IMG/VR virus record: IMGVR_UViG_3300027754_003435
Source of the DNA: a virus
Length of the DNA stretch: 64,000 nucleotides
Reading direction: 5' to 3' (one strand)
The translations under genes were made by a program, and so were the position numbers. Below the pieces are notes generated by a model. It did not search any database. It saw nothing but the letters and a program-made list of their open reading frames with translations, and was not told where the DNA came from. Below, one piece after another: positions 4,609 to 44,081 of the stretch. Every line of letters starts with the position of its first letter. Within the stretch, counting starts at the first letter, position 1.

Positions 4609-5397
4609 CTATGGTTCTAAATTTCTCATTAAACCAATAAGTTCTTCACTTATTGATAAATTTGTAAGATACGCAACACCTTCTTTTTGCATAAGTTGTA
4701 TTAATTTTTTACCAACTTGATTTTGCAATGGACTTTCCAATATACTTTTACCTTTTCTAAAAAGTTGAAGCATCAAATCAGAATATTCTTCTGAATCAGA
4801 ACTGTATGATTTGTTATTATCAACTACATGAAAGTGTTGATTTCCAAAATAGCTTTGGAAAGCACCAATGTTATGTTGAACTTCTTCCCATTTCTTTGCT
4901 ACTATCATTGGTGGTACTTTTCTTGGACGCATTTGATTTCTTTGTTGAGCTATATCTAATGAAGTATTTACCATTACCATGTCAACATCATATCCCAATG
5001 AATGTAACATACTTGAAACTCTCTGAATTTTAGGTAAATCTGCACCAGTTCCATCGATAAAAACAGGTAAACAACCGTTAACTATCTGAAAAAACTGATT
5101 TGAAGCCATTAATTTTGCTTTTTCTCTCTGAAACATCTGTGTAGAATATATATCAGAACCAGGGTCCATTATCAATGGAAGATTGTTTTTTTTCAATAAA
5201 AACTCGTAAAAAGTGTCAGAATTAACTACTTTTACCCCAAATGGACTGATTCCACCCGCTGTTGTACCTGTTAAAACCCCCAATACGAATCCTTTACCAG
5301 ATCCAGGTCCACCGCCAAGAAACACTGCTTTGAATATGTTCTTGTCATGCACACTTTCTTTTAGTATACCTTCTATTATTTTTTTTAGCTTAATCAT
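4609..5397 (-). CDS. P-loop kinase (zeta-toxin/PNK-like) with N-terminal MIKL tag
   Basis: Walker A GGPGSGKG, VNSD, FIDGTG and the lid motif RNQMRPR; starts MIKLKKIIEGILKE. Confidence 0.75.
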   Translation of the reverse strand: MIKLKKIIEGILKESVHDKNIFKAVFLGGGPGSGKGFVLGVLTGTTAGGISPFGVKVVNSDTFYEFLLKKNNLPLIMDPGSDIYSTQMFQREKAKLMASNQFFQIVNGCLPVFIDGTGADLPKIQRVSSMLHSLGYDVDMVMVNTSLDIAQQRNQMRPRKVPPMIVAKKWEEVQHNIGAFQSYFGNQHFHVVDNNKSYSSDSEEYSDLMLQLFRKGKSILESPLQNQVGKKLIQLMQKEGVAYLTNLSISEELIGLMRNLEP

Positions 5398-5442
5398 AGC
5401 TCTACCGATTGTTTTAGAATATTACGAATAAATATAAAAATT

Positions 5443-6333
5443 TTACTTTTTAATCATTTTTAGAAGTGTCAACTCTTTCTGTTTTGTCTCTAACATAACA
5501 TCAATATCTAACCCATACGTGTTTGGTAATGTATGTATATAGTCTGAATGTGCTTGTGGTTTTATCTTATCGTCATTCTCATGAAGTGCTTTACTTTCTG
5601 AGTAGTGTACAACAGGTTTTACAGTACCCCACGTCGATGTGGCGAGTCTTAATGCATCTTCCTCTGATAAGTCACCCGTACAGAATGTATGGTGGTGGTA
5701 ATCGAATACAATAGGAATACCGATGGTGTTATGAATCTGCGTTAAGTCTTTAACGGAATACATACTTGCTTTATCATCGTTCTCTACTGTTAGTCTTAAT
5801 TTAACAGAATCAGATAACATATCGAATTTACGGCAGAAGCGTTCCATAGTTGTTACTTTGTCACCGTATGTGCCGTTACAATGTATGTTAATTTTGTTGA
5901 ACGGTGTTTTAGATAAATTCATTAAATCAAATATTTTACCATGTGTTTCTAAATCAATAATAGTTCTTCTAACTACATCGTCATTTGGAGAACCTAACAC
6001 ATTGAATGGACCAGGATGGCAAGTGATACGTATATTGTTTTCTTGTACGAATTTACCGATACGTTGAAGTACAATACGGATTAAATGAATTTGCGGTAAA
6101 GTTTCTAAGTCATACTCAGAAGCCCAAGGAAAAATATCAGATGAAACACGAAAGAAATAAATACCGTTCTTTACGTTCCACTTGAGAATCTTTTCTAAAT
6201 CAACAACATTTTTATATGCAAGTTCAGAAGCATAACTTACACCTTTAGTTAAAAAAGTTTTTTTAATCATAGAACGATTAGTGGTAATTTTTTCTTTACC
6301 CAATGTCATGTTAATACAAGCGTAGCCAAGCAT
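5443..6333 (-). CDS. uvsE: UV DNA damage endonuclease
   Basis: MLGYACIN, FFRVSSDIFPW, CHPGPFNVLGSP, INIH, VENDD and FDYHHH motifs. Confidence 0.95.
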   Translation of the reverse strand: MLGYACINMTLGKEKITTNRSMIKKTFLTKGVSYASELAYKNVVDLEKILKWNVKNGIYFFRVSSDIFPWASEYDLETLPQIHLIRIVLQRIGKFVQENNIRITCHPGPFNVLGSPNDDVVRRTIIDLETHGKIFDLMNLSKTPFNKINIHCNGTYGDKVTTMERFCRKFDMLSDSVKLRLTVENDDKASMYSVKDLTQIHNTIGIPIVFDYHHHTFCTGDLSEEDALRLATSTWGTVKPVVHYSESKALHENDDKIKPQAHSDYIHTLPNTYGLDIDVMLETKQKELTLLKMIKK

Positions 6334-6377
6334 AAAAAATCCGTATAAAGTTTTAATACAACAAGATACGGATTTTA

Positions 6378-6746
6378 TTAGAATTTTGCTATTGCTAATA
6401 TGGTTTGAATTTGTCTATCACCACTTGAATTAAATCTTGAGTCTGGAACTTTATCAGCAGTTTTCTTACTTAATACATTTATATTACTAATCCGATCAAC
6501 CCTAAGTAATTTCCAACCAGGAATCTGTGTTGTTGTTTTTCCAGTTGTTTGCCATACTCGTAAATATTTTTTACCATTGGTTAACCCAAAACAAACAGGA
6601 ATAATTCCAGTTCGCCAACCAGGTGAGTTTTCTCTATCACCCTTATAATAAAGTGCTAATATTTTTTTATCATTAACAGCATTAACCAAAACAGAATCTT
6701 GAGGAGCTGCTTCAGTAAGTAGTAATATTTCGGTTAAACTTATCAT
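6378..6746 (-). CDS. WYL-like domain protein with N-terminal tag
   Basis: YYKG...WRTGIIPVCFG...YLRVWQ...WKLLRVDRISNI fits the WYL fold; probable start MISLTEILLLTE at 6746. Confidence 0.6.
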   Translation of the reverse strand: MISLTEILLLTEAAPQDSVLVNAVNDKKILALYYKGDRENSPGWRTGIIPVCFGLTNGKKYLRVWQTTGKTTTQIPGWKLLRVDRISNINVLSKKTADKVPDSRFNSSGDRQIQTILAIAKF

Positions 6747-6834
6747 AACCATAAATATATAAAAATAAAAAACCCCCAACCAAAGTTGGAGGTTATTTAG
6801 GGTATCATCCCTTTTCCCATTCCGTAGGAATTTT

Positions 6835-7386
6835 TTATGATTTTTTTCGTTCACATGGTAGTTGGCCAGTTAACTTCCATTTATTAAAAATTACCAATTG
6901 TTCTTCAGTAAGTAAACCTTCAATCAAAGAAAGTGTTGTTTCATTGCATTTTTTCATATTAACTTGAAATGTAAGTTGTGTTTCTTTAGCAAGTTTACCA
7001 TATTCTTTTCTAATGGATTCAACTTGCTGACGTACTAAGGAATCTTTTTCTAAACCTTTGTATTGAGCCAACTTTTCTGCTTGTTGTTTTCTCAATGATT
7101 CCATTGTTGTTTTTAATTTTAACTTACATTCTTTTTCACAAGTACGAGCTTCTGATAAAATAAATTTAATTTTATTCATTTGCTCTTGTGAAAGATTCAA
7201 GCAAGGTAAAACTGCTTCTAACGGAACTCTTTTTTGCATTCCAATCGAATCTTTTTTTATTGAATCACGTAAATCAATCGGTGTTCTTTTTTCAAATGCA
7301 GTTGTATCTTCAACTTTTGTTAATTGTTCTTGACAACCAACAACCAATAATAAACTTAAAACCAAAATCTTCATATAGTTTTTCAT
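6835..7386 (-). CDS. Spy/CpxP-like helical lipoprotein
   Basis: Lipobox LLVVGC and two LTXXQ-like motifs (LNLSQEQ, LLTEEQ). Confidence 0.6.
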   Translation of the reverse strand: MKNYMKILVLSLLLVVGCQEQLTKVEDTTAFEKRTPIDLRDSIKKDSIGMQKRVPLEAVLPCLNLSQEQMNKIKFILSEARTCEKECKLKLKTTMESLRKQQAEKLAQYKGLEKDSLVRQQVESIRKEYGKLAKETQLTFQVNMKKCNETTLSLIEGLLTEEQLVIFNKWKLTGQLPCERKKS

Positions 7387-7409
7387 AACTACTTCCTTTA
7401 AATAAAAAA

Positions 7410-8036
7410 TTAAAAATCAATTGCTGGATTTCCACTCATACTACCTGAGTATGTACTCGTATGCACTAAACGAATTGCAAGTCCCATCCCAAATGGTGTA
7501 TTTATCTTAACAACATTATCGTTTGACCAATATAAACGAGTTGCAACTGCCGCTGCTGCTGAAGCTGTTGTTGCTGTCCAAAAATTTGCACTCCAACCAA
7601 AATCGTATTGTTCTGCATTTTCTTTCATATAACCATTTGGATTTCCACAAAAGTTACTTTCATTACTACCATTACCAGAACGTTTATTAAGAGTTGACCA
7701 ATTAATATTATTTTTTAATAAATTACCGGCTGCTTGTTGACCACCTTCTGCAGTAATCAATGTGTTCCAATCACTTTCAGTTGGAACTCTAAATCCTGTT
7801 GGAGCAATTGCTGCATGTGAACCAGATACGGCATACCAATTATACAATTTTCCGTATTCTTCTTCCATACCTTCGTCGAAATCATAGTAACACCAACCAG
7901 GTGTACCATTTTGAGAATATGCTTCCCATTGTTCTGAACTAGAAACTTCTGCGATGGCTGTGCCATCTTGAAAAGATTCTACTGCAAGATTTTCTTTAAA
8001 CCAATATTGTGAACCTATTTGAACAATAGCCATCAA
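7410..8036 (-). CDS. FISUMP (Fibrobacter succinogenes major paralogous) domain protein
   Basis: QYWFKENL, YGKLYNWYAV, APTGFRVPTESDWNTL, FWTAT and GLAIRLV motifs. Confidence 0.85.
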   Translation of the reverse strand: MMAIVQIGSQYWFKENLAVESFQDGTAIAEVSSSEQWEAYSQNGTPGWCYYDFDEGMEEEYGKLYNWYAVSGSHAAIAPTGFRVPTESDWNTLITAEGGQQAAGNLLKNNINWSTLNKRSGNGSNESNFCGNPNGYMKENAEQYDFGWSANFWTATTASAAAAVATRLYWSNDNVVKINTPFGMGLAIRLVHTSTYSGSMSGNPAIDF

Positions 8037-8376: not shown

Positions 8377-8913
8377 TTACTCCGTAGTACGTATATAAAA
8401 TATATAATTATTTTCTGAAATTTTTTTCACACACACATGATTATATAGTGATGTAAAATGTTGAAATAGATAAACCATACTATATCTGTAAACAGGTGTT
8501 GGAAACTCTTTTATAGAAAAAACAACATTTTTTGAAAATTTAAAACATTCTCTTATTATAGTGTCTATAAATTGATATTGTCTTTCACTATACAATGGTT
8601 TATCAAAAATACCAGTTATTATAGACCAATCATATTGATTATAATCATTATTATCTATAAATTCTTGTATTGATTCTTGGACATAACTCCAATTGTGAGT
8701 TTTTTCTAATGGTTCATTATCTACAAATATATTATGAATATCATCACTAATATCAACTGCTGTGTACTCAATATCCAATCCAAATTCATCAATTTTATTT
8801 ATAAAGTTTAATTCTTTATCGCATGCTCCAAAATGAACCACTCTCTCATTTTGGCCAATTCCACAATAAATAATTTCATCGGCTGTTCTAATTACGTTTG
8901 TTATTTGTTCCAT
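8377..8913 (-). CDS. Putative class I SAM-methyltransferase-fold protein
   Basis: VVHFGAC, YTAVDIS and YDWSIITGIFD align with degenerate MTase motifs I, II and IV. Confidence 0.45.
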   Translation of the reverse strand: MEQITNVIRTADEIIYCGIGQNERVVHFGACDKELNFINKIDEFGLDIEYTAVDISDDIHNIFVDNEPLEKTHNWSYVQESIQEFIDNNDYNQYDWSIITGIFDKPLYSERQYQFIDTIIRECFKFSKNVVFSIKEFPTPVYRYSMVYLFQHFTSLYNHVCVKKISENNYIFYIRTTE

Positions 8914-9542
8914 TTTAGCGCTTCCGAAATGTTAGGAAAATTTATAATAAATATGTCTTTAATGTCATTCGCAATAATTCTGTGTTCAAGTTGTGTATCT
9001 TCTGAACACCGTAGATCAAGATAGTGAATCCAACTACGAATAGAACCTTTCATATACATAGTTGTTTCAGTTGCTAGTGGAAGAACATCACGAGCAGTTT
9101 CTCGTGATACACCATCATCAATTAAGTATTGATATAGTTCTTTACTTTTTTCTAAATGGTTATCAACCATTTTACTTAAAGTAGAATCTAAAATAATTTC
9201 TTCTGAACTTTGTCTGTTTGTTTTTCCTTGTTTACGCAATTCAATTGGTTGAATGTCTGTTGCTGTTGAATATCTTTGAGAAAATTCTTGAAAAGAAAAA
9301 CTACGGTGGCGTAAAATTTGAGCTGCAATACTTCTGCGAGTAACTATCGAAACTGTCATGTCTACCATTTCAAAAGGCGACCAATGCTTATGCTTAATTA
9401 AATAACTTAGGAGTTTAGACGATGAATCCATATTCATCTGATTAGACGGATTACTAACTCTTGCACAATACGAAATCAATTCTTCTGCCGTTGTTAACCC
9501 ACTCATCGTTGGAAGAGTAATCGAAACTAATTTTACGGACAT
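8901..9542 (-). CDS. thyX: FAD-dependent thymidylate synthase
   Basis: HKHWSPFE, RHRSFSFQEFSQRY signature, ARDVLP and TQLEHR. Confidence 0.95.
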   Translation of the reverse strand: MSVKLVSITLPTMSGLTTAEELISYCARVSNPSNQMNMDSSSKLLSYLIKHKHWSPFEMVDMTVSIVTRRSIAAQILRHRSFSFQEFSQRYSTATDIQPIELRKQGKTNRQSSEEIILDSTLSKMVDNHLEKSKELYQYLIDDGVSRETARDVLPLATETTMYMKGSIRSWIHYLDLRCSEDTQLEHRIIANDIKDIFIINFPNISEALKWNK

Positions 9543-14344: not shown

Positions 14345-15256
14345 ATGAATACGATTCAACAAACAATTGAAAATGCTCCATCATTTCGTCCAGAAAATCT
14401 GATTATATCAGATGTTAAATGGAAATATTTAGTACGTTCCGTGTTACGTGGCAACAACCTTATGATTACGGGACCTGCTGGCTGTGGTAAAACACTTGCA
14501 GTTTCAACTGTTGCTAAAGCTATGGCAAGACCGTTCTTTTACTTCAACTTAGGTGCTACACAAGATCCGCGTTCTTCTCTTATCGGTAATACACACTTTA
14601 ACAAAGATACTGGTACTTACTTCGCTGATTCTACTTTTGTTCGTGCTATTCAAACAGAAGGTGCGGTAATTTTATTAGATGAGCTTTCAAGAGCGCATCC
14701 TGAAGCAAGTAACATTCTTATGACTGTGTTGGACGAAACACAACGTTACCTACGAGTTGATGAGTCACCGTCATCACCAGTAGTAGAAGTTGCAAAAGGT
14801 GTTTCATTCCTTGCTACCGCTAACATCGGTGTTGAATATACAGGTACGAGAGAAATGGACAGAGCATTGAAAGATAGATTTATGATTTTAGAAATGGACG
14901 TTCTTACTAAAGAACAACAAGCATTCCTTATTAAACAAGTTTGTCCAAGCCTATCGGAATCAGTTATCACTATTCTAACTGGCATCTATAATCAAATTCA
15001 AAATGAAGTTGAGTCTGGCTCTGGTAAAATTTCAACTGGCATTTCAACACGAACCATACTTGCGGCATCTTCATTGATTTGTGATGGATTTTCTATAAAA
15101 GATTCAATAGAAGTTTGTGTGTTTCCTTACTTCTCAAATGATGGCGGTTTAGATTCTGAAAGAACATATGTTCGCCAAATTGTTCAAAAGTTTATTCCAG
15201 ATGAGCATTTGAAAGATGATAATATGTTCAATGAGAAGGACGCAGTAAACTTCTAA
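14345..15256 (+). CDS. MoxR/CbbQ/NorQ-family AAA+ ATPase
   Basis: Walker A GPAGCGKT, Walker B ILLDELSRA, ATAN and DRALKDRF motifs. Confidence 0.9.
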   Translation: MNTIQQTIENAPSFRPENLIISDVKWKYLVRSVLRGNNLMITGPAGCGKTLAVSTVAKAMARPFFYFNLGATQDPRSSLIGNTHFNKDTGTYFADSTFVRAIQTEGAVILLDELSRAHPEASNILMTVLDETQRYLRVDESPSSPVVEVAKGVSFLATANIGVEYTGTREMDRALKDRFMILEMDVLTKEQQAFLIKQVCPSLSESVITILTGIYNQIQNEVESGSGKISTGISTRTILAASSLICDGFSIKDSIEVCVFPYFSNDGGLDSERTYVRQIVQKFIPDEHLKDDNMFNEKDAVNF

Positions 15257-15322
15257 TGACTAATACAAGGGGCTAACAGCCCCTTTTCTTTTTTAATTAT
15301 GGCAAATTCGCCACAATTAAAT

Positions 15323-15370
15323 TTTGGTTGTTATCAGAAAAAAACGTATATTTGTATGTAAGATTAACAC
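15323..15370 (+). promoter_or_regulatory. Host-type early promoter plus degenerate leader
   Basis: TTTG(15323)-20 nt-TATATTTG(15347), then TATGTAAGATTAAC. Confidence 0.75.
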
Positions 15371-15390
15371 ACACTCAAACGGAAATAGAT

Positions 15391-17499
15391 ATGAAGAAGA
15401 AATCAACAAAAAGTATTTTGAAATCGGCCATTGCTCGTACTTCAAAGTTTTGGGATACACAATCAACCAAAACTGACAAGTCAAACTATTGGTTACGTGG
15501 TTCTCTTTTTGATAAAAAAGAATCTATGTTTAAAGATACAACAGAAAAGGAATCAAGGTTTGACCATTTTGCTTTGGCACAATATCAACGTGCTATTACA
15601 AACTTCGTTCATATTATGACCGGTAATAAAGATATAGCAGTTAAGTATATTACAAATGGTAACAGCTATACTAATGGTAAAACTATAACTCTGTCTGCTT
15701 CTATTAAAGAGAAAGATTTTGATTCTAATGTTGGTTTAGCTTTACATGAAGCAAGTCATATTATTTATACCGATTTCAGTTTAGCAAAAGAAAGTATTTG
15801 GGGATTATATTCATTTTTAGAGAATACCGATAAACTTACTTCTGATGAAAAAATCAAGTCAATTGCTGCAGTTGGTACAAGAGAAAATTTCAAAACTATT
15901 ATTAATATAGTTGAGGATTTATTTATTGACGCAATGAGTTATGCAGCAGCACCTGGTTATCGTTCTTATTACCAAGCACTATATCATAAATTTTTCGGTG
16001 ATGAAAAAATCATCAAGGGTATGCGTAATAAAAAGTATATGGAAGTAAACTTTGAAAATTACATATTTCATTTATGTAATGTGCGTAATCCAGAAAGAAA
16101 TCTTAAAGCACTTCCAGATTTAGAAGTGATTTGGAATAAATTAGATTTGAGTAACATTCGTAGATTAACTACACAACAAGACAGAATAAATCTAAGTACC
16201 GATATTTTAATTACTATTCTTAAAAATGTTTTGAATAGTGAAAACCAAACTAATTCAAACAATACAAATCAAGAACAGCAATCTGAAGGTAATGAATCTG
16301 AAGGTAGTGAAGGTAATGAATCTGAAGGTAGTGAAGGTAATGAATCTGAAGGTAGTGAAGGTAATGAGTCCGAAGGTAGTGGTTCAGAAAACGATAATAG
16401 TGAATATACATTAACTGAAAAGCAAATAACCCAACTTGAAAAAATATTTGAAAAGCAACAAAATTTTATTAACGATGATGCTCAAAAAACAAAATTAACA
16501 AAAGAAGCTTCACTTCAAGTTGAAGCACTTTCTTCATTGGACATTACAGAAGTTATGACCGCTAAACACTTGAATAATGAATCTTCTACGTTCAAGGGTG
16601 TTAAAACACTTGTTATAAATAATGTTACTGAAAAGTTTATGAAATCAGATATTGCTCGTGGATTTGGTTTGTCTATGCATTCATGGTCTGCTCGAGGTGA
16701 AAGTTTAGAGCACGCTATTTCTCTCGGTAAAGTTCTTGCAAAAAGGCTCCAAGTTAGAAATGAAGAGCGTTCATTAGCTTCTAAAAGATTAAAATCTGGT
16801 AAGATTGATAATCGTATGTTGCACGAAATTGGCTTTGATAATTACGATATTTTCAAGAAAGTAAATGTAAGTCAATACAAACCATCTTATATTCACATTT
16901 CAATTGACCAATCGGGTTCAATGTCAGGTGACAGATTTGAAGAGTCCGTAAAGTTTGCAACTATGTTTGCGGTTGCTTCTAAATCTATTAAAAATCTTCA
17001 TGTTGTTGTAACCGCTCGTTCAACGTTTCATAGTGGTGGTAATAATAAATTAAAAGATACGCCTTATATTGTTTACTTATTCGATTCTAAAAAACATAAC
17101 ATTAATGATATTAGAAGAGTGTTTAACTATATAAAAACATCAAACTTAACACCAGAAGGACTTACATTTGAAGCGATTCAAAACGAAGTGATGAAAAGTT
17201 CAGTAAATACAGATGCTTACTTCATTAACTTATGCGACGGAGAACCTTGTGCTGAATATAATGGTTTTAAATACAGAGGCGATGAAGCTAAAGAACACTC
17301 ACGTAAACAAGTGGATAAAATGAAACAACGTGGTGTTAACATTATGAATTACTTCTTTGGTGGTCAATATGAGTATAGTAAGTTCTTAAAAACTTATCCT
17401 AAAAATTCATATATGTTAAAGAATGCAGAAGAGGTTAATTCAATAGTTAAGATTATGAATCGTGAACTTTTGAGTGGAGCAAGTAAGCAGAATGATTAA
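15391..17499 (+). CDS. vWA-domain partner of the AAA+ ATPase (CobT-like) with HEXXH motif
   Basis: LHEASH, IVED, acidic low-complexity linker, MIDAS IDQSGSM and LCDGEP; start placed at ATG 15391. Confidence 0.85.
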   Translation: MKKKSTKSILKSAIARTSKFWDTQSTKTDKSNYWLRGSLFDKKESMFKDTTEKESRFDHFALAQYQRAITNFVHIMTGNKDIAVKYITNGNSYTNGKTITLSASIKEKDFDSNVGLALHEASHIIYTDFSLAKESIWGLYSFLENTDKLTSDEKIKSIAAVGTRENFKTIINIVEDLFIDAMSYAAAPGYRSYYQALYHKFFGDEKIIKGMRNKKYMEVNFENYIFHLCNVRNPERNLKALPDLEVIWNKLDLSNIRRLTTQQDRINLSTDILITILKNVLNSENQTNSNNTNQEQQSEGNESEGSEGNESEGSEGNESEGSEGNESEGSGSENDNSEYTLTEKQITQLEKIFEKQQNFINDDAQKTKLTKEASLQVEALSSLDITEVMTAKHLNNESSTFKGVKTLVINNVTEKFMKSDIARGFGLSMHSWSARGESLEHAISLGKVLAKRLQVRNEERSLASKRLKSGKIDNRMLHEIGFDNYDIFKKVNVSQYKPSYIHISIDQSGSMSGDRFEESVKFATMFAVASKSIKNLHVVVTARSTFHSGGNNKLKDTPYIVYLFDSKKHNINDIRRVFNYIKTSNLTPEGLTFEAIQNEVMKSSVNTDAYFINLCDGEPCAEYNGFKYRGDEAKEHSRKQVDKMKQRGVNIMNYFFGGQYEYSKFLKTYPKNSYMLKNAEEVNSIVKIMNRELLSGASKQND
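16285..16380 (+). repeat. 4 x 24-bp tandem repeat encoding EGNESEGS
   Basis: GAAGGTAATGAATCTGAAGGTAGT four times; the last unit carries synonymous changes. Confidence 0.95.
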
Positions 17500-17982: not shown

Positions 17983-18054
17983 GGTCCCATCGACTAACGG
18001 TTAGGTCACTACCCTTTCAAGGTAGCTGCACGGGTTCAAATCCCGTTGGGACTA
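17983..18054 (+). tRNA. trnE: tRNA-Glu (TTC)
   Basis: Acceptor GGTCCCA/TGGGACT, anticodon stem CTACC/GGTAG with loop CTTTCAA, T-loop GGTTCAAATCC; CCA is not encoded. Confidence 0.95.
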
Positions 18055-18089
18055 CACAATTTTATTCACAATAATATATTAAATGTTTT

Positions 18090-18847: not shown

Positions 18848-18901
18848 TAATTCTTTTATATTTATATTGGATTAACTATTTTTGAAGTAATAGAGAATAA
18901 A

Positions 18902-19369
18902 ATGAAAGATATGAAAAAAATGAAAGACCTTGTTAGTGAAGGTAGAGAAATGCAAAACAAATTAACAAAGTTGATTAATGGGAAGTTAAATGAAGGTAAT
19001 ACAAACCAAGTAAACGAACGTGGTCAATACGCTTGGGGTATGGTTAAACCAGACTTAGACAGAACAAGTGGTTTGGTATACGCAGCAGACATTTCGTTTA
19101 CATTAGAAGATATATTTGAATTGTATGACGCTTATACAAAAACTGTTAGAATGTTATCAGCGTTTGCTTCACATCATCAGGGTTCAATACACATTAATCC
19201 AATAATTGAAATTGATATTCCAAATGAAACAACAGCACACCAATTTACTGGTTCAGAAATTAAAGCTCTCTATCAATTTGCAATGGCAAATAAAGATGCA
19301 ATAGTATCACGTCATGGAACAAGAACCATGAGTCAACCACAATCGCAAGCACCATTTGGGATGCGTTAA
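18902..19369 (+). CDS. Hypothetical protein with tag-like N-terminus
   Basis: MKKMKDLVSE...KLNE...QVNE; preceded by ATATTTAT at 18858. Confidence 0.65.
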   Translation: MKDMKKMKDLVSEGREMQNKLTKLINGKLNEGNTNQVNERGQYAWGMVKPDLDRTSGLVYAADISFTLEDIFELYDAYTKTVRMLSAFASHHQGSIHINPIIEIDIPNETTAHQFTGSEIKALYQFAMANKDAIVSRHGTRTMSQPQSQAPFGMR

Positions 19370-20122: not shown

Positions 20123-21142
20123 ATGAGTGCAACTTTAGTTGAATATGTATGGCTTGATGGTTACACGCCAGAACCTACTCTTCGTAGTAAAATCAGAGTT
20201 TCCGATGGAGGTTCATCAGAACAATGGTCATTTGATGGTAGTTCTACTAAACAAGCGGAAGGAAACTTTTCAGATTGCATTCTTAATCCAGTAAAACGCT
20301 ATCATGGAACTAATAGAAATGATAAGATATTTGTTTTATGTGAAGTTCTTAACTCAGATAGAACACCACATGAATCGAATGATAGACATAAACTGGATTT
20401 TTCCATATATTCCTCTTTAGATAATTCTGCGGAATCACCTTGGTTTGGATTTGAACAAGAATATTTTATACGGCAGGGACATAAAAAAAACATATTAGGT
20501 TTTGAATCAAATTATTCAACAGAAAAACAAGGCAAATATTATTGTGGTGTTGGAGGACTTATATTTGGAAGACACTTATCAGATGAACACCTTGAAATGT
20601 GTTTGAAATATGGTATAGGTATAGAAGGAACAAACGCTGAAGTTGCTGTTGGTCAATGGGAATATCAAATTTTCGGTAAAGATATTCTTACTGCATCGGA
20701 CGATTTGTGGATGTCTAGGTATTTCTTGTTCAAATTGGCAGAAAAATATGGTTATGATATAGAATTACACCCTAAACCACTACAAACTGGTGATTGGAAC
20801 GGCTCTGGACTACATACAAACTTCTCAACCCCAAGAATGCGTGATGTTGGTGGTGATGAATACTTTAATAAAATATTCAAACAATTTGATAAAGATAAAG
20901 AAATACACATTGCTAACTACGGTTCTGACAACCATTTACGTTTAACTGGCAAGTTTGAAACACAAGATATAAACAAATTTACGTGGGGTATTGCAGATAG
21001 GGGTGCTTCAATACGTATACCAACAGGAACAGCGGAAAATTGGTGTGGATATTTAGAAGATAGAAGGCCAGCTTCAAACGCTAATCCATATAAAGTTACT
21101 AAGGTAATATTGGATTCTATGTACGAAGTTGATAAAAAATAG
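20123..21142 (+). CDS. glnA: Glutamine synthetase type II
   Basis: WSFDGSST, NAEVAVGQWEYQI, DWNGSGLHTNFS, DRGASIRIP and YLEDRRPASN motifs. Confidence 0.95.
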   Translation: MSATLVEYVWLDGYTPEPTLRSKIRVSDGGSSEQWSFDGSSTKQAEGNFSDCILNPVKRYHGTNRNDKIFVLCEVLNSDRTPHESNDRHKLDFSIYSSLDNSAESPWFGFEQEYFIRQGHKKNILGFESNYSTEKQGKYYCGVGGLIFGRHLSDEHLEMCLKYGIGIEGTNAEVAVGQWEYQIFGKDILTASDDLWMSRYFLFKLAEKYGYDIELHPKPLQTGDWNGSGLHTNFSTPRMRDVGGDEYFNKIFKQFDKDKEIHIANYGSDNHLRLTGKFETQDINKFTWGIADRGASIRIPTGTAENWCGYLEDRRPASNANPYKVTKVILDSMYEVDKK

Positions 21143-21207: not shown

Positions 21208-21762
21208 TTAATTTAATTCACGCATATAATCAGCTAGTTTAATATTCCATTTAACGTCGGGATATTTCATCGATAACTGTTTCACAGCCATTACATTAGG
21301 TCTTGCATCATCAATAAAGAACACGTCATTGTACCCTTGCTGTATTTTTGATTCTATCCAATCTGCTTTAGCTTGTGGGTCGGCAGAACCTACACCTACC
21401 ACTTCTATGTTATTTATACCGATTGTTTGTAAGAACTGTTTAATATCGTTTGCAGCAGCACCTTTACGAGCTGTTAATACCGTTATACGTCTCATACCAG
21501 TTGCTACGTATAATTTTCCAAGTATATTAGTTACTGACTTAATCTCTTGTGGACTTATTACTTGATTAAACTCAGAAAAGTCCAAGTTATCACCTGGTTG
21601 CTCACGATATATGGCAAACTCAGCCGGAGTTAATTTACTCATATTACCATGTCTATCGGTTAAAATAACCATAGATTTAGTCGTTGCAAGTGTGTCATCG
21701 AAATCAAATACTCTTAATTTCTTAGCTTCTTGCTCTTCTAGTAGTTCAGTTAATGTTATCAT
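21208..21762 (-). CDS. HAD-superfamily phosphatase with N-terminal tag
   Basis: FDFDDTL, VLTAR, K and FIDD motifs; start MITLTELLEE. Confidence 0.8.
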   Translation of the reverse strand: MITLTELLEEQEAKKLRVFDFDDTLATTKSMVILTDRHGNMSKLTPAEFAIYREQPGDNLDFSEFNQVISPQEIKSVTNILGKLYVATGMRRITVLTARKGAAANDIKQFLQTIGINNIEVVGVGSADPQAKADWIESKIQQGYNDVFFIDDARPNVMAVKQLSMKYPDVKWNIKLADYMRELN

Positions 21763-21823
21763 CTCGGTTTCTTCTCCCAACCTATTGACTTTCTATATTG
21801 TTCGTAGTTATTCATTGTCCAAT
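21756..21823. repeat. Direct repeat copy 1 (68 bp; pairs with 22380..22447)
   Basis: 63 of 68 positions identical by manual alignment. Confidence 0.95.
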
Positions 21824-22386
21824 CCTCCTGAAGTGCTTTTCATTGAGAGTATTTTTGTATTTAACGGATTGAATATAACAATTTCTTTTTCGCCATTTCC
21901 TATAATTCCATTAATACCAATATCATCCATCATTTCTGATAATTGTTTATCACTTATTGGAAAAATTCTTAGAATTTTATTATATAAATCTATACCGTTT
22001 TTAGAATCTTTTATGATATTATTAATGATAAATAACTTTTGCTCATTACTCATTCTTTCGCCTTTATTATCTACAATATCATTATTAATACTAAACATAT
22101 TTCTTACTTTATCTAAATTAGATTTACTTACCTTTTTATTATCAGATAAAAAATTTAAACGGTTTGGTATTTTTACGTTATATACATAACCACCTTTTGC
22201 ATAATGTGTAGCAAGATTTTTAATAGTTGTTAAATATATACCATAACCATATTCATCGCCACCCGTTTTTTTACCAACATCTTTTTTTAAATTATCAAAT
22301 TTATATGGTGAACCATGATAATAAATAATATCATTCATAATATTTTCGTTTAGATATTCTTTTAGTAGTTCTGATAATTTTATCAT
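21808..22386 (-). CDS. ADP-ribosyltransferase-like (ART-PolyVal-type) protein with N-terminal tag
   Basis: YYHGS...F...G...YGYGIYLT...A.HYA...E.VIF motifs; start MIKLSELLKE. Confidence 0.7.
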   Translation of the reverse strand: MIKLSELLKEYLNENIMNDIIYYHGSPYKFDNLKKDVGKKTGGDEYGYGIYLTTIKNLATHYAKGGYVYNVKIPNRLNFLSDNKKVSKSNLDKVRNMFSINNDIVDNKGERMSNEQKLFIINNIIKDSKNGIDLYNKILRIFPISDKQLSEMMDDIGINGIIGNGEKEIVIFNPLNTKILSMKSTSGGLDNE

Positions 22387-22447
22387 CTTGGTTTCTTCTC
22401 CCATCCTATTGACTTTCGATATTGTTCGTAGTTATTCATTACCCAAT
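22380..22447. repeat. Direct repeat copy 2 (68 bp; pairs with 21756..21823)
   Basis: 63 of 68 identical; covers the 3' end of the 314-aa gene and the next start codon. Confidence 0.95.
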
Positions 22448-23327
22448 TTACTATACTATTTGGATCATTATTGTATATTGCATTTGTTTGTATCAAGGGT
22501 TTTCCATCCTTTGAATGTATAGTATAAGTTTCCATTGCCTCATCAACAAACACAATATCTCTTGCGGTTTTACCATGAAATATAACTTGAAATTCTTGAT
22601 CTGAATGATGCCAACATCTTATGCCAGACGCACGGAATATTAAGAAAGTTCCATCACCGTACTTCAGTGCTTGGCCATCAACACCATATTTAGCAAAGTC
22701 TTCTGGTGTATAAGCAAAATTATACCCCTCACCTATCTTTTTACCTTGCAACCATGTTGTTAATCCTAATTTAGTTGGATCCGCAATACCCTTAATAAAA
22801 CCTTTTCTTGCCATCATCCGTCCGTCCATACGTGTTGTTCCATGAACTAACCATTGATTCTTTACCAATGTTGGTTCATGTAAATAAAACCATGACGGTA
22901 TGTCAGCTGGTTGTATACCAAAACCATCCATAAACGCCATAAACGATTGTTCTTCTGCATATATCTTGTCCATTAACCAATCAACGATTGCACCATACGA
23001 TACTGGATCTTTCTGTTTAAGTACATCCCATTTACGAAGCTCCAATGCTTGAGTATACAGTTGTATTTTAGGAACAGCGTTCGGATCCGCCCGTACGGGT
23101 TTATTTTGGTTGTGAATTTGAGGAGGGGTGAACCCAGGATTCGAGCGAAATTGGAATTTTGAATATAAATTTTGTGTTTTGATAAAATATTCATCAATTA
23201 TTTGTTTATATCCAATCATACCGACTATTTCATCCGCCATTTGTTCTGGTGTAGAATCTAAATACTTCCATAATGTAACAACATCGGTATCTACATATTC
23301 TTTTAGAAGGTCTTTTAGCTTAATCAT
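22383..23327 (-). CDS. ART-fold-like protein with N-terminal tag
   Basis: WLVHGT...GF...GYNFAY...YG...IF...DQEFQVIF; paralogous to 31252..31899; start MIKLKDLLKE. Confidence 0.55.
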   Translation of the reverse strand: MIKLKDLLKEYVDTDVVTLWKYLDSTPEQMADEIVGMIGYKQIIDEYFIKTQNLYSKFQFRSNPGFTPPQIHNQNKPVRADPNAVPKIQLYTQALELRKWDVLKQKDPVSYGAIVDWLMDKIYAEEQSFMAFMDGFGIQPADIPSWFYLHEPTLVKNQWLVHGTTRMDGRMMARKGFIKGIADPTKLGLTTWLQGKKIGEGYNFAYTPEDFAKYGVDGQALKYGDGTFLIFRASGIRCWHHSDQEFQVIFHGKTARDIVFVDEAMETYTIHSKDGKPLIQTNAIYNNDPNSIVNWVMNNYEQYRKSIGWEKKPR

Positions 23328-23958
23328 ATTTTTCCATATTATTTAAGTGAGAAGGTGAAGTGGCGAGTGAAGCAGCGGCACCACCCAACCCCATACTACT
23401 CTTATTAATTGTGTCGTTGCTGTTCCCTACGATTTTCGGTTTAGAAATCACTTTATCATTAAATATCACTAAAATGTCATCATTTACGTCATTTCTTACA
23501 CGTAATCCGTCTATTCCACACGAAAGCAGGAAATCAGATATTTTCTTAGGTTCTCTAACTTTAAGTATTCTACCAATAAAGTCATAGAACTCAGGAATAT
23601 CGTCAATTACCGTGTTCGGCCCCCATACTTGTACGTCCCATTTTTCTTCTAAATTAGGTGGTAATTCCACTCTATCTCGTATCATTCCATTATATATTTT
23701 ACGTAATTGGTCTTTAGAAACCTTTGCCCACATAATATCAGCCATATGTGGTATGTTTACTTCCATTATAACCGCACCAAATGACTTAGCTCTTTCCCAA
23801 TCTTTAATGAAATAAATACCCCATCCCCAATAAGAGTGTATTTTATCCCCACCTTTACCTACCTTATTATACGAGAATTTAGTCACAGGTTGAGCACTAC
23901 CATGATACCATATACCGTCGTTAGCCATTTCTTTTAATATGTCTTTTAATTTTATCAT
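23320..23958 (-). CDS. ADP-ribosyltransferase-like (ART-PolyVal-type) protein with N-terminal tag
   Basis: WYHGS...KF...G.GG...WGWGIYF...A..FG...ILVIFN motifs; start MIKLKDILKE. Confidence 0.7.
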   Translation of the reverse strand: MIKLKDILKEMANDGIWYHGSAQPVTKFSYNKVGKGGDKIHSYWGWGIYFIKDWERAKSFGAVIMEVNIPHMADIMWAKVSKDQLRKIYNGMIRDRVELPPNLEEKWDVQVWGPNTVIDDIPEFYDFIGRILKVREPKKISDFLLSCGIDGLRVRNDVNDDILVIFNDKVISKPKIVGNSNDTINKSSMGLGGAAASLATSPSHLNNMEKYD

Positions 23959-24323: not shown

Positions 24324-24435
24324 TTTATTTCTCTCTTTACACTATAGTTTTACACTACTATTAACATATATATAAATATATAAATACTATAATATTTATA
24401 CCTATATACATTTTAATGATTATCGAGAATGAGTT

Positions 24436-31251: not shown

Positions 31252-31899
31252 TTATATTTTCCCCACGCTTTTTAAAAATGTTGATAATTTTACATCAGTT
31301 TCAATTAAATTCATATTTTTATCATAAACATCCCAAATCCATTCCTTCGTGTTTTTGCTATCAATTTTCACATTTACAATACAAACCACATCAATACCAT
31401 GTGTCACATCAAAAACTATTTGAAATTGTTTATCACCAGTATTGTAAACTTTACAAAAATCATTAGATTTAAAAACAATACCCCATCCACCATATAAAAA
31501 ATCTTTTTGGTATCTACTATCAATCTTTTTGTTAGTTAAATCAAATGCAAAACCGAAATTACCATCAATAATTTGTTCCTTACTTTTTCTTGTTTTAGTA
31601 AATGAAGAATAATATGCACCAACCCCACGAAAACCATTTTGTAAAATAGATGTTATATTTTCTTTGGTTGTTGAATGAAATAACAATGTGTTTGTTGATA
31701 ATTTTATTGCTGAATTTGGTTTGTATGAAAATCCTCTCTGTGGAGTTTTTTCCAAATTATTAACAACATTAACAAACTCATCAATTGTGTTTATTTTCGT
31801 AACATCTTTTTTTGAAACACTTTCTTTTAAAATTTGTTGTTCATTCAAAACCTCTCGTATTGATAACATGTCTTTGAGTTTAATTCTTTTGTTTTTCAT
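31252..31899 (-). CDS. ART-fold-like protein with N-terminal tag
   Basis: LLFHST...ILQNGF...FGFAF...YG..GIVF...DKQFQIVF; start MKNKRIKLKDML...ILKE. Confidence 0.55.
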   Translation of the reverse strand: MKNKRIKLKDMLSIREVLNEQQILKESVSKKDVTKINTIDEFVNVVNNLEKTPQRGFSYKPNSAIKLSTNTLLFHSTTKENITSILQNGFRGVGAYYSSFTKTRKSKEQIIDGNFGFAFDLTNKKIDSRYQKDFLYGGWGIVFKSNDFCKVYNTGDKQFQIVFDVTHGIDVVCIVNVKIDSKNTKEWIWDVYDKNMNLIETDVKLSTFLKSVGKI

Positions 31900-33185: not shown

Positions 33186-33416
33186 TTACTTATATATTGT
33201 TATTAGTGAAGTTAAAAGGTTTCCCCTGCCAACTATCGTGCCTATATGATCAAATGTTTTATCTGTTTTCGGATTGTATATACCCAATTTTCTACCTTGT
33301 CTATCTCTTAGTATATGCATACCAGTTGACAAAATTTCTAACGTACCAAGTGGAACACCACGTCTGTCACGTATGTAATCTCGTCTTTCAAACAATATGT
33401 CCATTAGTTTAATCAT
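33186..33416 (-). CDS. Small beta-repeat protein with N-terminal tag
   Basis: Start MIKLMDILFE; internal repeats RDRRGVPLG and RDRQGRKLG. Confidence 0.65.
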   Translation of the reverse strand: MIKLMDILFERRDYIRDRRGVPLGTLEILSTGMHILRDRQGRKLGIYNPKTDKTFDHIGTIVGRGNLLTSLITIYK

Positions 33417-33472: not shown

Positions 33473-35445
<1,973 letters not shown>

Positions 35446-40451: not shown

Positions 40452-40466
40452 ATATGTTTTAATTTC

Positions 40467-41894
40467 TTATTGTAATCGAGCGTCTGCCAACGCTTCCGCT
40501 AACTCACCCATCAATTGTTTGAGGAATGGTATGTAATCTGCTCCTCTACCTGAACCAATGAAATTTAATCCAGATATGTTTGTAATATCACGATGCCCAC
40601 CTGAGCCTTTTACTATAACATCATATACTGTTGTTGTTATACCATTGAGTATTGATTTTTGCTTTGATGAAAGTAATTGATATTGTTTACCTGCAATATC
40701 TTTTACCATATTTTGAAATCCTGGACTCTTCGGTAAATTCATAGCAACCTCACCAAACAAAGCCATGAAGTCATCCATAGTGAAACCAATGGATTCTGTA
40801 CTTCCTTTTTTTATATCCATTTCCATCTTTCTCTTAACATCACCCATTGTAAGTTGCATTGCTTGAAGTTCTGATTTGTGCTTATTCAATATACCCATCG
40901 CTAACTCACCCAAGTTAATTGGATTTGCACCTTTCTTGAATGGATTCTTAGATGCTTGTACCAATCCCATTGGCCAACCAATTACAAGGTACTCAGCAGT
41001 TGGGTTCATCTTGAATGGCGTGTATCTATCGTATCCACCTTTAGTCATTGTACCACCACCGTATTGAACTAAGCAAGTTCCAAACATTGCATATTGACCG
41101 TTCCCGAGTGTTTGTATTTCTCGTGGGCTTGTTATTTGTTTCATCTTTAGAGCGGGTGCTTGTGAAGCAAGGTATGATGCTGTTTTAGCAGGTAAATCTG
41201 CCCATGATAAACCACGTGCTGTAACTTCTTGTTTAATTACATTGTAGATAGAAACAAGTGAAGGACGTGCTTTCATTACTAACGCTTCTAAGAAGCCAGG
41301 TTTGTTCTTGAATGCAAGAAGAACTTTATTAACTACCAATCCCATTGCTAATCTATTTGGTACAGCAGACATAGTTGGATCGAACTCAAATACTGAACGC
41401 ATTACTTGGTCTGGATTAATACCTTGTGAAGCAAAGTCAGCGGAATCAACTGTTGATATAATTTGAATATCTTGTGCAGGAAACAAATCAGTTGGTGAAA
41501 TTTCCTGAGACATCGCTGCAACATTTGAAGGTGCGTGTTTGAATGCAGCAGATGTAGTTGGAGCAACACCTGCTTGTGATTGATGGTGATCGGTATGAAT
41601 GTGTACCATTGGTTTACCATGAGCAAAGTCAACGATAACAACTAATAAACCAGGTTCTGGTTTTTGAACTGCAAATTCCATACCACCATACTGAATTTTT
41701 TCACATTTTACTAACTTAACACCATATTTTTCTAAGTATGCTTTCATACCGATTGCAGTTGTTACACCGTCTAAATCCATGTGAAAGTATATCAAAGCCT
41801 TTTTTCTCGTTGCTGTTAATGCGTTAATGTTTCGGATTCCTGTTTCTGTAAGCGTCTGCTTTGCATCTGTCAACAGGTCTTTTAATTTTATCAT
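40467..41894 (-). CDS. DHH-family phosphoesterase with N-terminal tag
   Basis: HMDLDG, VDFAHG, TDHH and C-terminal SGGH (DHHA1-like GGGH); start MIKLKDLLTD...LTE. Confidence 0.8.
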   Translation of the reverse strand: MIKLKDLLTDAKQTLTETGIRNINALTATRKKALIYFHMDLDGVTTAIGMKAYLEKYGVKLVKCEKIQYGGMEFAVQKPEPGLLVVIVDFAHGKPMVHIHTDHHQSQAGVAPTTSAAFKHAPSNVAAMSQEISPTDLFPAQDIQIISTVDSADFASQGINPDQVMRSVFEFDPTMSAVPNRLAMGLVVNKVLLAFKNKPGFLEALVMKARPSLVSIYNVIKQEVTARGLSWADLPAKTASYLASQAPALKMKQITSPREIQTLGNGQYAMFGTCLVQYGGGTMTKGGYDRYTPFKMNPTAEYLVIGWPMGLVQASKNPFKKGANPINLGELAMGILNKHKSELQAMQLTMGDVKRKMEMDIKKGSTESIGFTMDDFMALFGEVAMNLPKSPGFQNMVKDIAGKQYQLLSSKQKSILNGITTTVYDVIVKGSGGHRDITNISGLNFIGSGRGADYIPFLKQLMGELAEALADARLQ

Positions 41895-41904
41895 TTTATT
41901 TTCC

Positions 41905-42186
41905 TCAAAATGTATCTTGTTTCAAATCTACCGTTATTAAATTCAAATATTCTACACCTTTTAAAGTGAGAGAACTATCGCCATATTTAATTTTATCTTT
42001 CATCCTACTAACAATATCAAAGTCATACTTTCTAATATCTTTAATCTTATGTAATTTAAGTATTACCCAATCTATTTTTTCCAATACTTCTTCTTTTTGT
42101 TCCGACGTTTTATACTGAACATAGTCTGTATATTTCAAATCGGAAACATCATCTATTTCTAAACTTGCCCAAAACGAATTTAACAT
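41905..42186 (-). CDS. Hypothetical protein
   Basis: ORF track; within an operon. Confidence 0.6.
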   Translation of the reverse strand: MLNSFWASLEIDDVSDLKYTDYVQYKTSEQKEEVLEKIDWVILKLHKIKDIRKYDFDIVSRMKDKIKYGDSSLTLKGVEYLNLITVDLKQDTF

Positions 42187-42188
42187 AA

Positions 42189-44081
42189 TTAATTCTCTGC
42201 AAGCTTCTTAGAAACTAACTCTCCATTTAAAGTCTCATTAATCTCAACAGCAAAAGTAAATGATTTACCACTAATACAGGAGAAAGAAATAAAATTGTAA
42301 ACAAAGTCTTTATCCATAGGAGTAGAATCGGTCGAACCTTTATAGTCAGAAAGACTAAAAACGGATATACTATAATATGTAGAGACGTCAATACTTTTAC
42401 TTTTAACTGGCAGTATTTTTAGAGCAATTATTGGCAATGTCTTTATAGAACTAAAATACTCTACCATTTTACTGTTATGTTTAACTTCATACTTATTACG
42501 AGAGTCATATTTTATTATGTTTATACCATCGTATTTTATTAACGGAACATCTACTGCACCACCAAATATTGCCTCAGCGTTTATTTCAGTTGCAAACTTT
42601 ACCAAACTAGCAACCGCAGCTTTTGTATCAGACGTGTTAACGGTTTTTAGATAACTATTTATCATATTATTTAACACCGCTATGGCAATGAAATTTGCAT
42701 TTGACATTAGAATATTCTTTAACTCTTTACGAGTAAATGTGAATGGGATAGTTCCATTCAATAATTCAGAACACTTTGCTACTTTGCCACCCGAAGTCAG
42801 TTTTCCGGATCCTGTTGTTGCTGTTTTAACTGAATCTATCATACCTGTTATTCTTTTCAATTCATCAATAAATTCACGATTATCATCTGATAAACTCTCA
42901 AACTTAACTCTAAAAAAATTCTTAGTTGAATACTCTTTAACAGTATTCTGAAACTGATTGAATATCGTGTTATATTGTTTTGTATCGTTATCGAATTTGG
43001 CATACCAATCTAATAGTTGATCTCTGAAACACGATGTTATAGGAATGGGTGCATTTTCCGCTTCATCTTCTGTTATTGGTTTACCAGAACGATTCATGTG
43101 TTCTACTATTTCCTTATCGAACTCTTTTAATACGGCTTCGGCATCCTCAGACATCTTCTTTATTTTAACCTGTGCATCCACCACACTTTTACTCGTTGGT
43201 GAAAATATATCAATTATATGTGACTTTATTTCTTTTGCCCAATCGGTAAATTTAGTCATAAGTGCCGTTACTTTTTTTACAAAGTTTGAGCCTACATCTT
43301 TCATCTTTGAAATTGTGTCTTTTACCATATCAGCAACACCTTCGTTTGTAGGTGAAGGTAAAACATTTTTTCCAAATTTTGATTGGAATAAAGTAGTTAC
43401 TTTTCCAACACGACCATTTAACGCTTTCAAACTAACACATGCCATCACGGTACTATCGTCTTTTAATTTTACCAAAGACTCGCCTGCTGGTTTCATACTT
43501 TTCAACAAATCACCTTGAAATGCATCTTGAACTCTACCAGGGCCCCAAAATAAAACAACATCTGCAGTAAATGTTTTACTCTGTTCATTGTGTTTTGATA
43601 CTGATTTTAATTTTGCATAAAAGTTAGTTATATTGGCATGAATAAATCCATCGACTTTATTACCACCATATATTGCTTTTAATGTTGGAGCATTCGGATT
43701 AACAGTTCCTGCAATAACAACATCATTAAATGTTTGGAATGCTTTTTCATCATCCTTTATTTTATTCAACAGAGTAAGCATCCAGTCTTTGCCAGCAGGA
43801 TCCCAATCGTAATTTTTATTGAGTATGCTAATCATATCATTTGAAGTTAGATTTTCCTTATCTGTTACTGCAAACATCAATGGTATGGTTTCAAAAACCT
43901 TTGTTTTATTTTTTAGACTTTTCCAAGAATCCCTGATTATCTTTTCGTTGGGACTCATGTTTTCATCGGCATTTTTTTTCTCGTTCATATGTCTTTTCTT
44001 ACCATTTACTTCACGTATTAATTTTTTAATACAAGTAAGTATCTTTCTTTCATTTTCTAATAGTACTTTGTACCGATTCAT
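42189..44081 (-). CDS. Large hypothetical protein, possible virion internal protein
   Basis: 630 aa; several LxE sites near the N-terminus; a TADVV...VSLK segment recalls a PD-(D/E)XK motif; ATATTTAT upstream. Confidence 0.7.
   Translation of the reverse strand: MNRYKVLLENERKILTCIKKLIREVNGKKRHMNEKKNADENMSPNEKIIRDSWKSLKNKTKVFETIPLMFAVTDKENLTSNDMISILNKNYDWDPAGKDWMLTLLNKIKDDEKAFQTFNDVVIAGTVNPNAPTLKAIYGGNKVDGFIHANITNFYAKLKSVSKHNEQSKTFTADVVLFWGPGRVQDAFQGDLLKSMKPAGESLVKLKDDSTVMACVSLKALNGRVGKVTTLFQSKFGKNVLPSPTNEGVADMVKDTISKMKDVGSNFVKKVTALMTKFTDWAKEIKSHIIDIFSPTSKSVVDAQVKIKKMSEDAEAVLKEFDKEIVEHMNRSGKPITEDEAENAPIPITSCFRDQLLDWYAKFDNDTKQYNTIFNQFQNTVKEYSTKNFFRVKFESLSDDNREFIDELKRITGMIDSVKTATTGSGKLTSGGKVAKCSELLNGTIPFTFTRKELKNILMSNANFIAIAVLNNMINSYLKTVNTSDTKAAVASLVKFATEINAEAIFGGAVDVPLIKYDGINIIKYDSRNKYEVKHNSKMVEYFSSIKTLPIIALKILPVKSKSIDVSTYYSISVFSLSDYKGSTDSTPMDKDFVYNFISFSCISGKSFTFAVEINETLNGELVSKKLAEN

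Follow-up and report, generated by a model that had tools for sequence, protein, structure and literature searches.

The 64,000-nt phage fragment analyzed here (the window; IMG/VR virus record IMGVR_UViG_3300027754_003435; GC 30-34%) contains nine open reading frames (ORFs), all on the minus strand, that share a ten-residue start of the form MI[KTS]L..[IL][IL]..E with the consensus MIKLKDLLKE. This shared N-terminus is likely a leader of the type known from phage T4, which targets proteins to the capsid and is removed by the prohead protease, and the proteins that carry it are probably packed into the virion. Such a function had been proposed in a first-pass annotation of this DNA, and all predictions of the proposal that can be checked at the sequence level held: the window belongs to a T4-like lineage with a gp21-family protease, and the leader fits the pattern of T4 propeptides; an [IL]-x-E motif is kept at the junction between leader and domain, and the end of the leader matches the N-terminus of the scaffold; a promoter-like motif is common to tagged operons and to portal and tail genes, and the leader hardly occurs in prokaryote genomes (596 Gb).

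The leader starts at positions 5397, 6746, 21762, 22386, 23327, 23958, 31884 (start codon at 31899), 33416, and 41894. The regular expression MI[KTSR]L[KSTMR][DEK][ILM][ILM] matched nine times across the six frames of the window, with all nine matches at ORF starts and none inside a frame, and a loose T4-style pattern gave nine N-terminal matches against 0.15 expected. With a position-specific scoring matrix (PSSM) built from related tags, six N-termini scored 12-31 bits, compared with a maximum of 3.4 among 15,580 internal windows; the strict matrix fails on the T/S-containing leaders at 21762, 6746, and 31884 because its training set consisted of pattern-selected tags. The leader is about ten residues long (longer in three cases), and [L/I]-x-E is present in all nine. 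For the proteins of 122, 184, 192, and 212 aa, the leader Met sits 36, 6, 6, and 2 codons, respectively, inside the longest ORF. Considering that GGAG is found 10-12 nt upstream of the leader Met at 21762 and 22386, and that a terminator and a promoter-like motif lie immediately upstream of the one at 6746, the leader Met is a likelier start than that of the longest ORF.

All nine N-termini quoted in the first-pass annotation are present in the window translations. The positions it quoted pointed to the correct genes but denote the low (3') ends of minus-strand ORFs, not the N-termini. Of its two looser matches, the one at 18902 fits when read from the second Met, whereas the one at 42189 fits only loosely. 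It had also singled out an equal frequency of the motif on early and replication genes as evidence against a virion function; in the window, housekeeping enzymes carry no leader, the untagged genes including those for a NUDIX protein, a second HAD protein, ThyX, UvdE, a glutamine-synthetase-like protein, GroEL/ES, glycosyltransferases, and an exonuclease.

The 30-nt leader DNA varies at many synonymous sites between the tagged genes, and upstream DNA is unrelated among them except for one pair (21762/22386). In the 147 unique ORFs with a tag, usage at the leader covers every synonymous codon, at frequencies roughly as in the gene bodies. Given this codon usage and the lack of conservation in the upstream DNA, selection acts on the peptide and not on the DNA or RNA. 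A conserved DNA element was considered and rejected, upstream sharing being confined to two gene pairs and explained by a local duplication for 21762/22386 and by a common terminator-plus-promoter arrangement for 6746/33416. In front of each of the latter two genes, a T-run terminator hairpin is followed by the promoter-like motif, which abuts the start codon and leaves no space for a ribosome-binding site; this arrangement suggests leaderless or very short-leader mRNAs.

In T4, leaders of 10-20 residues address proteins to the scaffolding core and are cleaved off by gp21, and their fusion to foreign proteins leads to encapsidation (PMC9958956, PMC5694885, PMC3012670). The T4 propeptides, taken from the T4 record NC_000866, are MKTYQEFIAE in IPII and IPIII, MKTFKEF...ITE in IPI, MELITELFDE in Alt, and MAKINELLRE in gp24, and the gp22 sequence is MLKEQLIAEA. 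MIKLKDLLKE and these propeptides have in common the pattern M-x-x-phi-x-[DE]-phi-phi-x-E with a final [L/I]-x-E, and comparison with the ten-residue propeptide of gp24 shows five identical and three conservative positions.

The 31,944-64,000 part of the window aligns collinearly with G001, an IMG/VR contig of 110 kb, at 72-98% nucleotide identity. The head module of G001 comprises a terminase, a portal, a gp21-family prohead protease (Peptidase_S77, E = 5.5e-31), a coiled-coil scaffold, and a T4-type major capsid protein. A megablast search with 20 kb of the window against GenBank phages gave no match. Among cultured phages, the portal protein places Microcystis phage Mel-JY01 nearest (76%), followed by Flavobacterium phage immuto (51%). 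In Mel-JY01, paralogues at 60.3-62.7 kb begin with MIKLKSLLKE, MIKLKSLLQE, and MIKLMSLVTE, and immuto has one such leader, MIKLIDLLTE, on a gene at 24.6 kb. A ribosomal-protein-S21-like gene lies between the protease and scaffold genes both in Mel-JY01 (22183-22410, annotated RpsU) and in G001 (16622-16849). The window itself encodes, at 2884-3540 on the minus strand, a ClpP-family protease (CLP_protease, 1e-33; matched also by PHROG "head maturation protease" families), two genes away from the tagged kinase gene at 4609. The ClpP homologue was rejected as the main processing enzyme because the head module of this lineage has a gp21-type protease.

The exact leader MIKLKD[LI]LKE was detected on at least 119 IMG/VR viral contigs, where it heads at least 170 complete ORFs from at least 72 unrelated families, often in tandem arrays (further tagged arrays are found in loci L010, L091, and L096). 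By contrast, 596 Gb of prokaryote genomes yielded only eight leader matches, about five of them on phage-like contigs in bins of metagenome-assembled genomes (MAGs) or single-amplified genomes. Among the matches listed, a search of 35 tag-bearing contigs over 35 kb found Peptidase_S77 in 20, and it is present in all 11 listed tag-bearing contigs with CheckV completeness of at least 46%, including the four at 90% or more. The commonest tagged family (22 members among the matches listed) is the gene directly after the protease gene. Clade-wide, the cargo also includes lysozyme, NUDIX, DnaQ-like exonuclease, NT5C, M78 and M48 peptidases, and Tpt1, and most cargo families have no Pfam match. More distant jumbo relatives (G003, 272 kb; G004, 222 kb; loci L188-L213) bear other leader families on dozens of genes; these are MKIIITESQ / MKYLITESQ and MNLQEHIRRVLREE / MKELIRHILKEE, all with [IL]-x-E. 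One of the contigs matched in the prokaryote genomes, L220 (SHWW01000027.1), from a Lake Baikal Flavobacteriaceae MAG, contains the array found at 21.2-24 kb of the window (ADP-ribosyltransferase [ART], 314-aa protein, and HAD phosphatase) minus the 192-aa ART, a difference that reads as cassette-like gain or loss inside the tagged array. The binning of L220 is a weak hint of host and habitat (Flavobacteriaceae, freshwater); the host of the window phage is probably a freshwater member of Bacteroidota.

The position of the predicted cleavage site is conserved where the leader itself is not. Among 27 homologues of the DHH protein, the leaders vary (MIKLKDLLTDAKQTLTE, MKKLLTE, MRKIISE, MKNLIRRIIKEETTKLLNE), but in all 27, [IL]-x-E stands immediately before the GIRNI conserved in the mature domain. 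The 192-aa ART and the 122-aa protein behave likewise, with [IL]xE immediately ahead of the conserved domain in their orthologues; those of the 122-aa protein have the leaders MKLYNTLNNLILE in G003 and MKLYNSFKTLILE in G004. The DHH orthologues of G003 and G004 carry the leader families of those genomes; judged by these alignments, leader family tracks the genome, not the cargo. The scaffolds of 13 of 18 tag-bearing phages begin with M(x0-5)[DKN][LI]LKE-[AS]IADAK, which corresponds to residues 6-10 of the tag, and T4 offers a parallel, its tag ..EFIAEA resembling ..QLIAEA of gp22. In G003 and G004, no clear match of this kind is seen, the scaffolds beginning with ..KNLVED and ..RNVVED. We entertain only tentatively, as somewhat doubtful, the broader notion that the leader is a universal, swappable address label that copies the N-terminus of the phage's own scaffold.

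The motif TATATTTAT occurs at 14 sites in the window compared with 5.5 expected, a count reached in none of 100 shuffles; sites include 5428, 6751, 8075/8081, 18857, 24372, 36225, 37310, 44117, and 50879/50885. Most copies are on the coding strand, ~20-50 nt ahead of a gene start. The motif precedes, among others, the genes starting at 5397 (31 nt downstream of the motif) and 6746 (5 nt), the candidate at 18902, the operon that contains the tagged four-gene array, and the operon with the DHH gene at its end, where it lies 36 nt upstream of the first gene (42189). In G001, 14 of 17 TATATTTAT sites are found 19-56 nt upstream of genes, among them those for the portal, tail tube, tape-measure-like, and tail-fibre-assembly proteins. 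Sites of the T4 late-promoter octamer TATAAATA show no enrichment in the window (21, with 16 expected). We consider TATATTTAT a candidate phage-specific, possibly late, promoter element distinct from the T4 octamer.

Table 1. Tagged proteins, further candidates, and promoter-like motifs in the window
Feature	Coordinates	Strand	Description
Tagged protein 1	4609..5397	-	262 aa; leader MIKLKKIIEGILKE, two [IL]xE sites; Zeta-toxin-like P-loop kinase
Tagged protein 2	6378..6746	-	122 aa from leader Met; leader MISLTEILLLTE; WYL/SH3-like by motif only
Tagged protein 3	21208..21762	-	184 aa; leader MITLTELLEE; HAD-family phosphatase (PNK-phosphatase-like)
Tagged protein 4	21808..22386	-	192 aa; leader MIKLSELLKE; predicted ART fold, H-Y-E type
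Tagged protein 5	22383..23327	-	314 aa; leader MIKLKDLLKE, the exact consensus
Tagged protein 6	23320..23958	-	212 aa; leader (MK)MIKLKDILKE; predicted ART-fold paralogue of tagged protein 4
Tagged protein 7	31252..31899	-	215 aa; extended leader MKNKR-IKLKDML-SIREVLNE-QQILKE; weakly PARP-like
Tagged protein 8	33186..33416	-	76 aa; leader MIKLMDILFE; no match in family search
Tagged protein 9	40467..41894	-	475 aa; 17-aa leader MIKLKDLLTDAKQTLTE; DHH/DHHA1-type phosphoesterase
Candidate tagged protein	18902..19369	+	MKKMKDLVSE from second Met; TATATTTAT 37 nt upstream
Weak candidate	42189..44081	-	630 aa; begins MNRYKVLLENE; first gene of operon ending in DHH gene
Second-leader-type candidate	47843..48424	-	MNSIKKFVVKE-IVEVLRE; homologue adjoins capsid gene in G018
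Promoter-like TATATTTAT	24372..24380	-	ahead of operon 24323 to 21208 with four-gene tagged array
Further TATATTTAT copies	5428-5436, 6751-6759, 18857-18865, 44117-44125		ahead of tagged genes

The tagged proteins (Table 1) each have a single recognizable domain by Pfam and PHROG comparison. The 262-aa protein matched Zeta_toxin (33.1 bits, cut-off 22.3) and phrog_12810 (2e-33) and contains the Walker A motif GGGPGSGKG. The 184-aa protein, encoded by the last gene of the four-gene tagged array, matched phrog_415 (7e-10) and DUF2608 (25.2 bits, cut-off 22.6). In the 475-aa protein, the Pfam DHH match is below the cut-off (E = 0.0014; 19.4 bits, cut-off 28.1), and all four DHH/DHHA1 motifs are present in the translation (HMDLDGV, VDFAHG, HTDHHQ, and GSGGHRD). 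For the 122-aa protein, the Pfam and PHROG search gave no match. The gene for the 76-aa protein lies directly downstream of GroEL, past a terminator hairpin, and its G001 orthologue begins with MIKLLNILTE; the start of the weak candidate at 42189 is also conserved in G001. GroEL (547 aa) and GroES (105 aa) are encoded at 33473-35445 (minus strand) in an operon whose leading gene is that of an HNH endonuclease.

The 192-aa protein contains the motif positions YYHGS ... GIY ... KEIVIF, which are conserved in the ART alignment, and matched Pfam ART-PolyVal below the cut-off (E = 1.2e-5; 26.6 bits, cut-off 31.2). Its AF2 model (pLDDT 74.6) shows the leader as a separate low-confidence helix. The top structural match of the model was residues 1418-1611 of 9k3a_B (A4 gp27) from the cyanophage A4 pre-ejectosome (VIA Z = 11.5), and comparison with the catalytic domains of diphtheria toxin and PARP gave Z-scores of ~6.5 (6-6.6). 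The 212-aa protein, also below the ART-PolyVal cut-off (E = 2.8e-4), is related to the 192-aa protein (BLAST E = 1e-8), and the modeled structure supports an ART fold with the H, Y, and E positions for both. Such a fold is suspected, from sequence motifs, for the 314-aa and 215-aa proteins. The C-terminal half of the former contains LVHGT ... QEFQVIF, with atlas leads to DarT/PARP, Arr, and Tox-ART at 0.87-0.88 only, and the latter matched Pfam PARP below the cut-off (E = 0.0023). No usable match came from single-sequence PDB searches with the DHH protein, the 314-aa protein, or the ART, and when the ART alignment was compared by profile with the 314-aa protein, the leaders alone aligned.

9k3a_B is a large ejection protein seen inside the cyanophage A4 capsid by cryo-EM of the pre-ejectosome (PMC12002296). 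Its residues 1418-1611 may, from the match with our model, represent an unrecognized ART domain; the term ADP-ribosyl is absent from the searched text of the A4 paper (PMC12002296).

The bodies behind the leaders had been described as unrelated folds, which holds for most of them but not for the paralogous 192-aa and 212-aa proteins or for the weakly related 314-aa and 215-aa proteins (BLAST E = 0.002); by sequence comparison, the window cargo falls into about seven families, not nine. The P-loop kinase, HAD, ART, and DHH labels given to them are supported, whereas the WYL-like label reflects motif resemblance only. The suggestion of a nucleotide-modifying toolkit is only partly supported, at the level of the recognizable enzyme folds (kinase, HAD, ART, and DHH).

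By analogy with T4, we infer core binding, cleavage, retention in the virion, ejection, and the roles of the enzymes as follows. The tagged proteins would be made alongside the head proteins, and the amphipathic leader of ~10 residues would dock them into the scaffolding core of the assembling prohead. The gp21-family protease would then cut after the Glu of [IL]-x-E, with the leader lost during scaffold degradation and the folded enzymes remaining in the head with the DNA. As do T4's internal proteins and Alt, these enzymes would enter the host with the DNA, and they might act before phage gene expression, probably against host defence or in host take-over. In T4, Alt and IPI, both bearers of such leaders, are injected (PMC9958956, PMC5512222).

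Several observations weigh against this mechanism. The window stops short of the head module, and the protease and scaffold were seen in the close relative G001. The closest cultured relative, Mel-JY01, has merely three or four tagged genes, and in other phages, the tag is found on NUDIX and DnaQ-like exonuclease proteins, which are not necessarily virion cargo. The residue that follows the leader Glu is highly variable, and ten-residue leaders are too short to tell homology to T4 from convergence. TATATTTAT is found also ahead of the GroES/GroEL operon and a few non-structural genes. Finally, the similarity to the scaffold might merely reflect the preferred site of the protease; whether it results from copying of the scaffold or from protease-site preference, these sequences tie the tag to head maturation.

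The most serious alternative, for some of the tagged proteins, is that the leader targets the prohead and is cut there, but the cargo consists of core or scaffold accessories or of enzymes that act within the head, all of which would be degraded or left behind and not injected. The commonest tagged family is indeed located in the head module, directly after the protease gene, and several tagged families have homologues adjoining the capsid gene; moreover, T4 provides a precedent in gp67 and gp68, core proteins that are degraded by gp21 (PMC9958956). We nevertheless consider this alternative unlikely: the window cargo consists of folded enzymes (kinase, HAD, ARTs, and DHH) with no obvious role in assembly, the leader-bearing Alt and IPI of T4 are injected (PMC9958956, PMC5512222), and the tagged ART fold matches an ejection protein.

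Alternatively, the leader could function in the cytoplasm, as an optimum for translation start or mRNA unfolding, as a signal for folding by GroEL/GroES, or in recognition by the ClpP homologue (2884-3540), an explanation that appears very unlikely to us. It is compatible with the lean of codons 5 and 9 toward AAA, with the location of the phage GroEL/GroES and ClpP homologue genes next to tagged genes, and with the finding that the N-terminus of T4 gp23 directs fusions to GroEL (PMC3012670). However, codon usage extends to all synonymous codons, AT-rich prokaryote genomes virtually lack the peptide, which among the matches listed is found only with T4-type heads, abundant untagged genes of the window manage without it, and the explanation would account neither for the [IL]xE junction nor for the resemblance to the scaffold's N-terminus. 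Even harder to credit is that the leader is a by-product of gene shuffling, that is, a gene-start cassette serving as a recombination site and encoding a functionless peptide. Tagged genes often form tandem arrays of varying content (L220, which lacks one ART, and L010, L091, and L096), and the neighbors 21762 and 22386 have ~45 nt of upstream DNA in common, yet many synonymous sites differ among the 30-nt leaders, no relationship is seen in the upstream DNA except in that pair, stretches so short and diverged are poor recombination substrates, and conservation of the amino acids over the 147 unique ORFs points to purifying selection on the peptide.

The principle of a leader that directs cargo, and its use for cargo loading, are established for T4's own tag. 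The predicted system resembles the T4 capsid-targeting sequence in its short N-terminal leaders (10-20 residues) on unrelated proteins, in the gp21 protease, gp22-like scaffold, and gp23-like capsid that accompany it, in the presence of an ART (Alt) among the T4 cargo, and in the location of the genes in variable arrays (PMC9958956, PMC3012670, PMC5694885). It differs in the leader, MIKLKDLLKE instead of MKTYQEFIAE, and in the number of tagged genes, 9-12 per 64 kb as opposed to about five T4 proteins (IPI-III, Alt, and gp24). Cargo in the clade described here spans at least 72 families, with many enzymes among them (kinase, HAD, DHH, NUDIX, exonuclease, and lysozyme). Compared with T4, then, the consensus is different and the cargo set is much larger and enzyme-rich, with the same putative class of mechanism; the match to the scaffold offers a testable clue to how the tag might work. 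A literature search for the peptide string returned unrelated vaccine-design papers only, and we found no paper in the open literature connecting "capsid targeting sequence" to cyanophages, to metagenomes, or to environmental T4-like phages.

Two other groups of phage proteins are comparable. In the giant phages phiKZ, 201phi2-1, and SPN3US, ejection and inner-body proteins have long N-terminal propeptides that a T4-related prohead protease cleaves at x-x-E motifs, and paralogous head proteins of these phages have identical N-termini that are thought to target the prohead (PMC5694885). These propeptides are, however, mostly longer than 100 residues, with A/S/G-x-E sites, and belong to a few paralogous families; they do not constitute a short portable tag. 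Polyvalent proteins (Iyer et al. 2017), which are predicted to be delivered with the DNA as infection begins, contain ART-PolyVal, Zeta-like kinase, phosphoesterase, and peptidase domains (PMC5512222); ART and Zeta-like domains are typical of these proteins (PMC5512222). Whereas many domains are combined there in one giant polypeptide, the proteins described here are separate and small, each with its own tag; they are not members of the polyvalent class but may work alike.

Virion-carried proteins of other phages are mostly counter-defence or take-over factors and are poorly found by homology. If the leader loads cargo, it marks proteins carried into the cell by widespread aquatic T4-like phages; in metagenomes, the ten-residue motif would then point to dozens of families as candidate effectors, and T4-style cargo loading would extend to phages of other hosts. 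The scaffold match, the lineage-specific leader variants, and the leader swaps among cargo could make the question of how the tag reaches the core testable. Should the leader indeed copy the scaffold N-terminus, a motif search would read out the whole set of virion-delivered effectors of the clade (at least 72 families), the ARTs, Zeta-like kinase, HAD, and DHH proteins would be pre-packed counter-defence enzymes, and the route of the T4 tag to the core, still called mysterious (PMC9958956), would be explained.

Apart from the tagged genes, the minus strand at 50924-62566 encodes a run of glycosyltransferase, epimerase, and methyltransferase-like proteins, a sugar-modification cluster of a size unusual for a phage. 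Auxiliary genes of the window include those for a short glutamine-synthetase-like protein (20123-21142, plus strand), ThyX (8901-9542, minus strand), the UV endonuclease UvdE (5443-6333, minus strand), a CobS/CobT-like AAA+/vWA pair (14345-17499, plus strand), and tRNA-Glu (UUC; 17983-18055, plus strand).

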